A stretch of 64,000 bases of DNA, taken from the NCBI RefSeq assembly GCF_003334785.1, contig NZ_QOWV01000005.1; one strand, written 5' to 3'. The translations under genes and the position numbers were made by a program. The notes beneath the pieces were generated by a model that ran no database searches, was not told where the DNA came from, and was given only the letters and a program-made list of their open reading frames with translations. Positions 21,818 to 52,121 of this stretch are shown here, piece by piece; positions within the stretch are counted from its first letter, which is position 1; each line of letters opens with the position of its first letter. This stretch comes from Escherichia coli. Lineage in GTDB: Bacteria > Pseudomonadota > Gammaproteobacteria > Enterobacterales > Enterobacteriaceae.

Positions 21818-22981
21818 ATGTCTGTAATTAAGATGACCGATCTGGATCTTGCTGGGAAACGTGTATTTATCCGTGCGGATCTGAACGTACCAGTAAAAGA
21901 CGGGAAAGTAACCAGCGACGCGCGTATCCGTGCTTCTCTGCCGACCATCGAACTGGCCCTGAAACAAGGCGCAAAAGTGATGGTAACTTCCCACCTGGGT
22001 CGTCCTACCGAAGGCGAGTACAACGAAGAATTCTCTCTGCTGCCGGTTGTTAACTACCTGAAAGACAAACTGTCTAACCCGGTTCGTCTGGTTAAAGATT
22101 ACCTCGACGGCGTTGACGTTGCTGAAGGTGAACTGGTTGTTCTGGAAAACGTTCGCTTCAACAAAGGCGAGAAGAAAGACGACGAAACCCTGTCCAAAAA
22201 ATACGCTGCACTGTGTGACGTGTTCGTAATGGACGCATTCGGTACTGCTCACCGCGCGCAGGCTTCTACTCACGGTATCGGTAAATTCGCTGACGTTGCG
22301 TGCGCAGGCCCGCTGCTGGCAGCTGAACTGGACGCGCTGGGTAAAGCACTGAAAGAACCTGCTCGCCCGATGGTGGCTATCGTTGGTGGTTCTAAAGTAT
22401 CTACCAAACTGACCGTTCTGGACTCCCTGTCTAAAATCGCTGACCAGCTGATTGTTGGTGGTGGTATCGCTAACACCTTTATCGCGGCACAAGGCCACGA
22501 TGTGGGTAAATCCCTGTACGAAGCTGACCTGGTTGACGAAGCTAAACGTCTGCTGACCACCTGCAACATCCCGGTTCCGTCTGATGTTCGCGTAGCAACC
22601 GAGTTCTCTGAAACTGCACCGGCTACCCTGAAATCTGTTAACGATGTGAAAGCTGACGAGCAGATCCTGGATATCGGTGATGCTTCCGCTCAGGAACTGG
22701 CTGAAATCCTGAAGAATGCGAAAACCATTCTGTGGAACGGTCCGGTTGGCGTGTTCGAATTCCCGAACTTCCGCAAAGGTACTGAAATCGTGGCTAACGC
22801 TATCGCAGACAGCGAAGCGTTCTCCATCGCTGGCGGCGGCGACACTCTGGCAGCAATCGACCTGTTCGGCATTGCTGACAAAATCTCCTACATCTCCACT
22901 GGCGGCGGCGCATTCCTCGAATTCGTGGAAGGTAAAGTACTGCCTGCAGTAGCGATGCTCGAAGAGCGCGCTAAGAAGTAA
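21818..22981 (+). CDS. pgk: Phosphoglycerate kinase
   Basis: Translation [40 protein letters not shown]... recognised as Pgk; start trimmed 21 codons. Confidence 0.97.
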
Positions 22982-22988
22982 AAAATCA

Positions 22989-23014
22989 CAGGGCAGGGAA
23001 ACCTGCCCTTGTTT
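22989..23014 (+). terminator. Putative rho-independent terminator after pgk
   Basis: cagggcagggaaacctgcccttgttt. Confidence 0.6.
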
Positions 23015-23049
23015 CAGCGCGCTTTTAGAGCACGCAATTTTTCATACTC

Positions 23050-23170
23050 TAAATAATTCGAGTTGCAGGAAGGCGACAAGAGAGTGAATCCCCAGGAGCT
23101 TACATAAGTAAGTGACTGGGGTGAGCGAACGCAGACGCAGCACATGCAACTTGAAGTATGACGAGTATAA
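23050..23170. repeat. ERIC (enterobacterial repetitive intergenic consensus / IRU) element in the pgk-fbaA intergenic region
   Basis: Core gtgaatccccaggagcttacat + aagtaagtgactggggtgagcg matches the reverse complement of ERIC1R followed by ERIC2 (primer sequences from memory); outer boundaries approximate. Confidence 0.85.
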
Positions 23171-23195
23171 GGCCCGACGATACAGGACAAGAGAC

Positions 23196-24275
23196 ATGTC
23201 TAAGATTTTTGATTTCGTAAAACCTGGCGTAATCACTGGTGATGACGTACAGAAAGTTTTCCAGGTAGCAAAAGAAAACAACTTCGCACTGCCAGCAGTA
23301 AACTGCGTCGGTACTGACTCCATCAACGCCGTACTGGAAACCGCTGCTAAAGTTAAAGCGCCGGTTATCGTTCAGTTCTCCAACGGTGGTGCTTCCTTTA
23401 TCGCTGGTAAAGGCGTGAAATCTGACGTTCCGCAGGGTGCTGCTATCCTGGGCGCGATCTCTGGTGCGCATCACGTTCACCAGATGGCTGAACATTATGG
23501 TGTTCCGGTTATCCTGCACACTGACCACTGCGCGAAGAAACTGCTGCCGTGGATCGACGGTCTGTTGGACGCGGGTGAAAAACACTTCGCAGCTACCGGT
23601 AAGCCGCTGTTCTCTTCTCACATGATCGACCTGTCTGAAGAATCTCTGCAAGAGAACATCGAAATCTGCTCTAAATACCTGGAGCGCATGTCCAAAATCG
23701 GCATGACTCTGGAAATCGAACTGGGTTGCACCGGTGGTGAAGAAGACGGCGTGGACAACAGCCACATGGACGCTTCTGCACTGTACACCCAGCCGGAAGA
23801 CGTTGATTACGCATACACCGAACTGAGCAAAATCAGCCCGCGTTTCACCATCGCAGCGTCCTTCGGTAACGTACACGGTGTTTACAAGCCGGGTAACGTG
23901 GTTCTGACTCCGACCATCCTGCGTGATTCTCAGGAATATGTTTCCAAGAAACACAACCTGCCGCACAACAGCCTGAACTTCGTATTCCACGGTGGTTCCG
24001 GTTCTACTGCTCAGGAAATCAAAGACTCCGTAAGCTACGGCGTAGTAAAAATGAACATCGATACCGATACCCAATGGGCAACCTGGGAAGGCGTTCTGAA
24101 CTACTACAAAGCGAACGAAGCTTATCTGCAGGGTCAGCTGGGTAACCCGAAAGGCGAAGATCAGCCGAACAAGAAATACTACGATCCGCGCGTATGGCTG
24201 CGTGCCGGTCAGACTTCGATGATCGCTCGTCTGGAGAAAGCATTCCAGGAACTGAACGCGATCGACGTTCTGTAA
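23196..24275 (+). CDS. fbaA: Fructose-bisphosphate aldolase class II
   Basis: Translation MSKIFDFVKPGVITGDDVQKVFQVAKENNFALPAVNCVG... recognised as FbaA; start trimmed 28 codons (track ORF runs through the ERIC element). Confidence 0.97.
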   Translation: MSKIFDFVKPGVITGDDVQKVFQVAKENNFALPAVNCVGTDSINAVLETAAKVKAPVIVQFSNGGASFIAGKGVKSDVPQGAAILGAISGAHHVHQMAEHYGVPVILHTDHCAKKLLPWIDGLLDAGEKHFAATGKPLFSSHMIDLSEESLQENIEICSKYLERMSKIGMTLEIELGCTGGEEDGVDNSHMDASALYTQPEDVDYAYTELSKISPRFTIAASFGNVHGVYKPGNVVLTPTILRDSQEYVSKKHNLPHNSLNFVFHGGSGSTAQEIKDSVSYGVVKMNIDTDTQWATWEGVLNYYKANEAYLQGQLGNPKGEDQPNKKYYDPRVWLRAGQTSMIARLEKAFQELNAIDVL

Positions 24276-24300
24276 GATATTCCTTTCTGCTTATCTCAAG

Positions 24301-24323
24301 GCCCGCTCTGCGGGTCTTTTTTT
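24301..24323 (+). terminator. Terminator-like hairpin plus T-run after fbaA (first copy of a duplicated motif)
   Basis: gcccgctctgcgggtcttttttt. Confidence 0.55.
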
Positions 24324-24336
24324 CGCCAAAAGCAAA

Positions 24337-24450
24337 ATTGCCTGATGCGCTACGCTTATCAGGCCTACACGTATCCTGCAATATATTGAATTTGCAGGTT
24401 TTTGTAGGCCGGATAAGGCGTTCACGCCGCATCCGGCATGACAAAGCGCA
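24337..24450. repeat. REP/BIME pair in the fbaA-mscS intergenic region
   Basis: gcctgatgcgctacgcttatcaggcctac and gtaggccggataaggcgttcacgccgcatccggca. Confidence 0.8.
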
Positions 24451-24467
24451 CATTGATATCTGTCTGA

Positions 24468-24492
24468 GCCCCGCTCTGCGGGGATTTTTTCG
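24468..24492 (+). terminator. Second copy of the terminator-like hairpin plus T-run
   Basis: gccccgctctgcggggatttttt, followed like copy 1 by cgccaaaagcaa. Confidence 0.5.
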
Positions 24493-24632
24493 CCAAAAGC
24501 AAGGTGATTCAGATGAGAAATCTGTGATCTATTTGGCAAAATTATGCTTTATTGTTTACCCTTGTCAGACTGCCCGTCATAAGGCGGCGGAGTGTATTTC
24601 TCCATTTTGAGTCAGTTGAAAAGGAATATTGA

Positions 24633-51962: not shown

Positions 51963-52121
51963 TTGTAGGCCTGATAAGACGCGCCAGCGTCGCATCAGGC
52001 ATCGGAGCACAACTGCCGGATTCGGCGTGAACGCCTTATCCGATCTACGGGCCTCGTCCCTGTTGTGATAAAGGCATCAAATCCCAGACATGATAAGACG
52101 CGCCAGCGTCGCATCAGGCGA
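51963..52121. repeat. REP/BIME cluster (three REP units) between yqfA and ygfZ
   Basis: gtaggcctgataagacgcgccagcgtcgcatcaggc, ccggattcggcgtgaacgccttatccgatctac and tgataagacgcgccagcgtcgcatcaggcg. Confidence 0.85.

Follow-up and report, generated by a model that had tools for sequence, protein, structure and literature searches.

ERIC elements, also named IRU or RU-1, are a family of MITEs of the Enterobacterales that was described in 1990-91 (Sharples & Lloyd, 1990; Hulton et al., 1991; see also Wilson and Sharp, 2006), and the family properties are treated in PMC2229807 and PMC3184786. A single ERIC mechanism has been published (PMC10969869; PMC2229807). It concerns copies at gene 3' ends in Y. 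enterocolitica, in which decay is enhanced through the unmasking of an RNase E site that lies in the 3' inverted repeat; the orientation of the element is crucial. These B-oriented copies (De Gregorio et al., 2005, as summarised in PMC2229807 and PMC10969869) belong to the same family as the element described here, and like it they are co-transcribed between operon genes and form an RNA hairpin. The REP/BIME intercistronic stabilisers (Higgins et al., 1982, cited in PMC3184786) are also transcribed, repeated palindromes in operons that are able to form 3' barrier hairpins, but they are an unrelated sequence family and much shorter (~35 bp). The ERIC in the spacer between pgk and fbaA of Escherichia coli is an ordinary member of the ERIC/IRU family and is already known in kind. 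It shares with the family the length of ~127 bp, the exact core, the long imperfect palindrome and the intergenic and presumably transcribed position, and probably also the terminal TA. Nothing substantial distinguishes it, save that the left TA seems to have decayed to CA and that it appears to belong to an Escherichia-specific subfamily.

The window, i.e. the whole 64,000-nt stretch of DNA that was analysed, carries here the epd-pgk-fbaA-mscS segment of Escherichia coli. The upstream gene pgk (21818-22981, plus strand, 387 aa) was taken from the ORF list and has the same 1164-nt length in the K-12 annotation, while fbaA downstream (23196-24275, plus strand, 359 aa) is supported by the ORF list, the K-12 annotation and homologues. 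Both ORFs agree with the E. coli K-12 MG1655 annotation in length and translation. They enclose a spacer of 214 nt (22982-23195), a value that is also quoted as the pgk-fbaA intergenic length (PMC2759082). Positions 22850-23350 are 100% identical to E. coli K-12 W3110, and a match to this region was found in all 5426 complete E. coli genomes. In the K-12 RefSeq record, no repeat feature is annotated at the pgk-fbaA spacer.

The 44-nt ERIC core GTGAATCCCCAGGAGCTTACATAAGTAAGTGACTGGGGTGAGCG has a single occurrence in the window (23084-23127), where it matches at 44/44 positions with zero mismatches. Its sequence corresponds to that of primer ERIC1R, reverse-complemented, with primer ERIC2 after it. 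The same core was matched by 0/100 shuffles. Because Rfam lacks an ERIC family, we built a consensus of our own from ~90 copies at other loci in ~60 enterobacterial genomes, including Citrobacter, Escherichia, Dickeya, Pectobacterium, Buttiauxella, Leminorella, Kosakonia, Enterobacter, Yersinia, Salmonella and others. Copies were found by scanning one genome per species with a 36-nt piece of the core, and 110 nt were taken on each side; all 90 independent copies share the core since the scan selected for it. Compared to this consensus the window element is identical at 115/126 positions, made up of 36/39 in the left arm, 44/44 in the core and 35/43 in the right arm. The first-pass annotation had placed an ERIC copy in this spacer and had proposed consensus alignment as its check, with poor alignment outside the primer-matching core as the result that would speak against it. 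The arms turned out to be 87% identical (71/82) outside the core, while 67% of the other copies have arms that lie further from the consensus, and the identification was thus upheld. The limits given earlier, 23050-23170, did not hold in the same way. The flanking 40 nt agree with the consensus at chance level (8/41 and 7/40), and column conservation among the copies rises sharply at 23045 and drops after 23169. From this loss of identity at both flanks we set the boundaries to 23045-23169. We conclude that the pgk-fbaA spacer contains a full-length, canonical ERIC/IRU of 125 bp.

On the plus strand, the element consists of a left arm (23045-23083), which is a terminal inverted repeat that includes the AU-rich stretch TAAATAATT and pairs with the right arm, a central core that forms the hairpin tip (23084-23127) and a right arm (23128-23169). 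The element proper ends with ...GAGTA at 23167, and the TA at 23168-23169, after which conservation falls, would represent the right-hand copy of a target duplication. At 23043-23044, where family columns (T, 0.49; A, 0.52) and the empty site place the left TA copy, the window reads a degenerate CA. The element starts with TA (23045-46) and ends with GTA-TA (23166-69), with CA as the outer left dinucleotide, and the empty site of Enterobacter reads TTTTC-TA-ACGG. These ends would be consistent with a TA target duplication of which one copy has mutated, but they are not proof of it.

A search of Rfam with the element returned RF02818, V_AS5 (Vibrio RNA AS5), as the sole matching family, with model positions 1-129 aligned over 23042-23161 (E = 1.5e-6). 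The alignment runs end to end and the hairpin architecture is shared. Membership is ruled out by the score of 38.9 bits, compared to a gathering score of 96, and by many non-canonical pairs in the outer stems; V_AS5 was also absent from the gathering-threshold Rfam scan of the whole window. The V_AS5 model was probably built on ERIC-like repeats of Vibrio.

In a distant-mode search, the median number of places occupied by the ERIC family was 11 per E. coli genome. Among the distinct ERIC copies collected, only 48/86 have the canonical length. In many copies with an exact core (L005, L007, L016, L019, L028, L030 and others) one arm is replaced or interrupted by other palindromic modules that are rich in GC, such as ...GACAAATCCGCATGGAGCGGATTTGAACGCTGCTTGCAGCGGCCCC or CCTGAAAGGGCGAGGCCTCAGGCCGAG..., and these interrupted-arm copies look like composite or long ERIC variants. 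One exact core lies on the 799-kb contig CACSKA010000001.1 (L095), which bears the label Chryseobacterium sp. 18061. The project also produced a sister assembly that is a Citrobacter, and the contig probably stems from a mislabelled or contaminated assembly.

Upstream of the ERIC, the spacer contains a hairpin 3' of pgk (AGGGCAGG-GAAA-CCTGCCCT, 22990-23009, plus strand), followed by the short T-tract TGTTT up to 23014. It was identified by stem scan, fold and comparison; the scan flagged the stem solely on the minus strand, it forms a domain of its own in the spacer fold, and each of the eight species compared has it. The hairpin is separate from the ERIC and resembles a terminator, weak or partial, or else a 3' stabiliser. 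Trailed merely by UGUUU, it is a weak terminator at best. Downstream, the alignment places the fbaA Shine-Dalgarno sequence AGGA (23184-23187, plus strand) inside the conserved block GATACAGGAC, 15 nt 3' of the ERIC. The region is conserved in the five aligned species, and each of the eight spacers contains GATACAGGAC. In the predicted fold the partner of the Shine-Dalgarno sequence is the start region of fbaA and not the ERIC.

The RNA of the element is predicted to fold into one long, interrupted hairpin with -47.6 kcal/mol (z = -6.2), and no shuffled sequence was equally stable. When folded in a context of 261 nt, the ERIC again formed its own domain, located between the post-pgk hairpin and the ribosome-binding region of fbaA. 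Its stems are interrupted (5 bp, a 7x7 loop, 10-11 bp), and in the family structure the AU-rich UAAAUAA sits in an internal loop. The consensus hairpin is well preserved among the 48 canonical-length distinct copies, with 96% of the cells paired compared to 32-44% when the partner column was shifted, and 14 of the hairpin pairs have changed on both sides. We rejected this covariation as evidence for an RNA function. Inverted repeats that co-evolve as transposase sites, or the spread of subfamilies, predict the same pattern, and therefore the compensatory changes in the arms were not taken as a sign of selection on the RNA.

Co-transcription of pgk and fbaA, which the earlier annotation had assumed, agrees with what is published. 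Using 5'RACE with fbaA primers, no transcription start was found in the 214-nt spacer, and fbaA relies on upstream promoters (PMC2759082). Likewise, a sigma-70-like promoter was not predicted anywhere in 22800-23300. With neither a promoter nor a start in the spacer, the ERIC should be carried in the pgk-fbaA mRNA, as we infer largely from the literature. The hairpin of the element is followed by UAAGGCCCGACG/TAAGGCCCGACG and not by a U-run, and the terminator scan gave no hit at the ERIC. Lacking a U-tract behind it, the ERIC hairpin is not an intrinsic terminator.

We analyzed the distribution of the element within E. coli with a query of 191 nt, in which the element is bordered at both ends by ~30-35 nt of unique sequence, and required a coverage of >=80%. 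The complete element with its unique flanks was found in 5418/5426 complete E. coli genomes (at least 99.85%). Neither an ERIC copy from another locus nor an allele with a 72-bp deletion can reach 80% coverage, and the complete element is therefore essentially fixed in E. coli. The deletion of the type seen in E. albertii (see below) was absent from the best 25 E. coli matches, all of which consist of two pieces with a total span of 273-274 bp. In a draft assembly of E. coli, contig AOQR01000086.1 (L105, 1-50) starts inside the right arm of the ERIC, an example of how the element explains why short-read assemblies may break at pgk-fbaA.

Orthologous spacers from outside E. coli were retrieved via the FbaA proteins of other genera and aligned. 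Citrobacter youngae has a spacer of 214 nt, as in the E. coli window, with a full but diverged ERIC at the same site (L102, 1849-1973), which folds at -51.9 kcal/mol. In E. albertii the spacer is 142 nt long and contains an ERIC with a 72-bp internal deletion that takes the inner left arm, all of the core and the first part of the right arm, while both ends stay (L097, 1920-1972). This deletion is identical in two independent assemblies, and the remnant of 53 nt folds at only -11.9 kcal/mol. The site is empty in Shimwellia blattae (spacer of 102 nt), Salmonella enterica (101 nt), Grimontella (98 nt), Klebsiella pneumoniae (97 nt) and Enterobacter cloacae (91 nt). The ERIC thus accounts for the spacer length of 214 nt in E. 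coli compared to ~91-102 nt in these relatives. All five empty-site genera retain two parts of the spacer, namely the post-pgk hairpin GGGCAGGGAAACCTGCCC, in this form or a closely similar one, and the block GATACAGGAC ahead of the start codon. Since the hairpin and the ribosome-binding block are kept in genera that lack the ERIC, these are presumably the functional parts of the spacer, and the ERIC is a dispensable addition.

The age of the insertion can be read in different ways. With the search core left aside, the window copy shares 96-99% identity with copies at unrelated loci of Escherichia, for example with a copy in an E. albertii contig (L003), from which it differs by one mismatch. 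Judged by these identities, the window copy appears to be a member of an Escherichia-specific ERIC subfamily. Compared to the copy of C. youngae at the same site, its identity is 74-77%, and the 4-fold sites of pgk and fbaA show an identity of 0.71-0.77 between E. coli and C. youngae. The high identity with other Escherichia loci points to a young subfamily, which would imply two independent insertions at the same TA, or gene conversion. The divergence of the C. youngae copy, being about that of the 4-fold sites, would instead fit orthology with neutral drift. The shared site may reflect two hits at the same TA, or one old insertion followed by concerted evolution.

Taking these data together, we propose the following scenario for the locus. 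An ERIC/IRU MITE would have inserted at a TA between the post-pgk hairpin and the ribosome-binding site of fbaA, and the inserted copy would now be fixed and no longer mobile. It would be transcribed within the pgk-fbaA mRNA, since fbaA seems to be without a promoter of its own in the spacer, and would fold alone into a hairpin of ~125 nt, free of pairing with the fbaA Shine-Dalgarno sequence and without a U-tract. Any effect of this hairpin would be modest and structural, for instance by stopping 3'-to-5' exonucleases and so protecting the pgk segment upstream, or as a 5' stem-loop on processed fbaA mRNA. On balance, we favor the reading that the element is a MITE copy in a tolerant spot, a near-neutral passenger that the mRNA carries passively. 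In related genera the operon functions in its absence, and hence the ERIC is at most a modulator. A role in RNA processing or stability, which the earlier annotation had put forward as a possibility, is comparatively weak as a proposal. What speaks against a passenger is that the full element is kept in nearly all complete E. coli genomes. This may reflect selection, but neutral fixation in a young species looks alike. The full ERIC at the same site in C. youngae could also hint at a benefit, whether through recurrent insertion or long retention. If the passenger reading is right, the pgk-fbaA ERIC has little importance beyond good annotation.

Because orientation is crucial to the published mechanism, the orientation of ERIC copies relative to stop codons bears on the remaining readings. 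We classified copies by their distance from the facing stop codon. At <=10 nt, 18 copies were in reverse orientation and 6 in the orientation of the window copy, compared to 8 and 23 copies, respectively, at >10 nt. The association is significant (Fisher p = 4e-4), with the caveat that it rests on mechanical ORFs and that some of the loci may be orthologous and hence not independent. The pgk-fbaA copy has the window-like orientation by definition, which in this sample is typical of copies far from stops. The reverse orientation would correspond to "B" of the published class. The window ERIC starts 63 nt from the pgk stop (22981 versus 23045), with the hairpin at 22990-23009 in between, and its AU-rich repeat forms the 5' arm instead of the 3' one. 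It therefore differs from the Yersinia B type by its opposite orientation, by lying 63 nt off the stop rather than overlapping or adjoining it, and by the conserved hairpin in between. Distance, intervening hairpin and orientation together place the window copy outside the RNase E-unmasking class.

The passenger reading has to be weighed against a selected role of the hairpin as an mRNA stabiliser, either as a block to 3' exonucleases for the pgk segment or as a 5' stem-loop for processed fbaA, which would help to set the PGK:FBA ratio. De Gregorio et al. reportedly suggested in 2005 that copies in the far-from-stop orientation act as upstream stabilisers, and the window copy has this orientation. 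Its hairpin is very stable and an independent domain, and the element is near-fixed in E. coli. Furthermore, degradational control at high growth rate has been reported for the transcripts of pgk and fbaA (PMC3936743), and given such control a stability element at pgk-fbaA would not be implausible. The comparative data are at odds with a stabiliser, however. Five related genera express the operon without the element, and most of the hairpin is deleted in E. albertii. The ends that E. albertii retained differ from those of E. coli about as much as synonymous sites do (3/~53, with a 4-fold identity of 0.91-0.93). In addition, a conserved hairpin is present at the 3' end of pgk in every species compared, and a stabiliser role would therefore already be filled. 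We consider a selected stabiliser doubtful, though it is the best placed of the functional readings. If the ERIC does modulate pgk/fbaA mRNA stability, it would be a tidy case of a MITE that tunes a core glycolytic operon.

A role of the ERIC as a processing site for RNase E (or RNase III), at which cleavage would split the pgk from the fbaA segment or initiate decay of the upstream pgk segment, as proposed for the stop-adjacent ERICs of Yersinia, appears improbable. RNase E processing of the epd-pgk-fbaA mRNA was reportedly described by Bardey et al. in 2005, and the family structure leaves UAAAUAA in an internal loop. The unmasking of an RNase E site by ERICs of Y. enterocolitica, reported in reviews (PMC10969869; PMC2229807), would offer a precedent. 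Here, the AU-rich repeat lies in the arm opposite to that of the precedent, and the orientation is the reverse of the one enriched near stop codons. Terminating ribosomes cannot open the element, since 63 nt and another hairpin precede it, and with its interrupted stems it is a poor substrate for RNase III. Finally, 5'RACE with fbaA primers gave no products from within the spacer (PMC2759082). Our literature search returned nothing relevant that ties ERIC to pgk/fbaA, or fbaA to RNase E.

Co-option by the host strikes us as similarly unlikely. Under this reading, one TA would have been hit independently in Escherichia and in Citrobacter, and these insertions, together with near-fixation of the complete hairpin in E. 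coli, would be the outcome of selection for an RNA element that adjusts how stable the pgk and fbaA mRNA segments are relative to each other and, with this, their stoichiometry; if true, it would represent lineage-specific post-transcriptional control of glycolysis. That the ERIC carries or creates a promoter or terminator which gives fbaA its own transcriptional control might be suspected from the unusually long spacer of 214 nt and from MITEs that sometimes bring promoters in other bacteria (PMC3184786), but we give it hardly any credence, as 22800-23300 holds no promoter-like site, 5'RACE detected no start between pgk and fbaA (PMC2759082), and the hairpin is followed by UAAGGCCCGACG instead of a U-run, with no terminator in the scan.

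The ERIC also affects how the start of fbaA is called. The earlier annotation had stated that the fbaA ORF is spuriously extended through the element. The extension is real and indeed spurious, but it covers the right half of the ERIC only. The mechanical ORF (23112-24275) encodes 387 aa compared to 359 aa of the annotated FbaA, and the additional 28 codons (23112-23195, plus strand) begin with a GTG at 23112. An in-frame TAA at 23109-23111 precedes this GTG, and the extension therefore spans just the right half. FbaA homologues of 358-359 aa cover 99-100% of the annotated protein, and the annotated start (ATGTCTAA...) is invariant in the five aligned species, including those without the ERIC. 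Thus, the element explains the upstream over-extension of fbaA by mechanical ORF callers. Among the homologues, class II FbaA proteins of Acinetobacter (A. nectaris, A. boissieri, A. rathckeae and a MULTISPECIES entry; P0019, P0028, P0040, P0056, P0057) are 87-88% identical to E. coli FbaA and as close to it as those of Serratia or Rahnella. These identities suggest that the fbaA gene of these Acinetobacter may have been acquired horizontally from Enterobacterales.

Repeats of other types were observed on the far side of fbaA. The fbaA-mscS spacer (window 24300-24500) is 357 nt long compared to ~185-222 nt in relatives without the pgk-fbaA ERIC, and it contains a REP pair (BIME) at ~24340-24440. 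The BIME is flanked by two near-identical, terminator-like units of CCCGCTCTGCGGG, a T-run and CGCCAAAAGCAA, located at ~24302-24335 and 24470-24500. It looks as if the fbaA terminator might have been duplicated around the REP insertion. In the same spacer, Rfam ES036/CssrF scored above threshold at 24361-24403 (minus strand). Further above-threshold Rfam matches in the window, all on the minus strand, were a Sib RNA (antitoxin) at 37475-37625, 6S RNA (ssrS) at 38274-38457 and the REP-derived naRNA4 at 51968-52045; these three are ordinary K-12 features.
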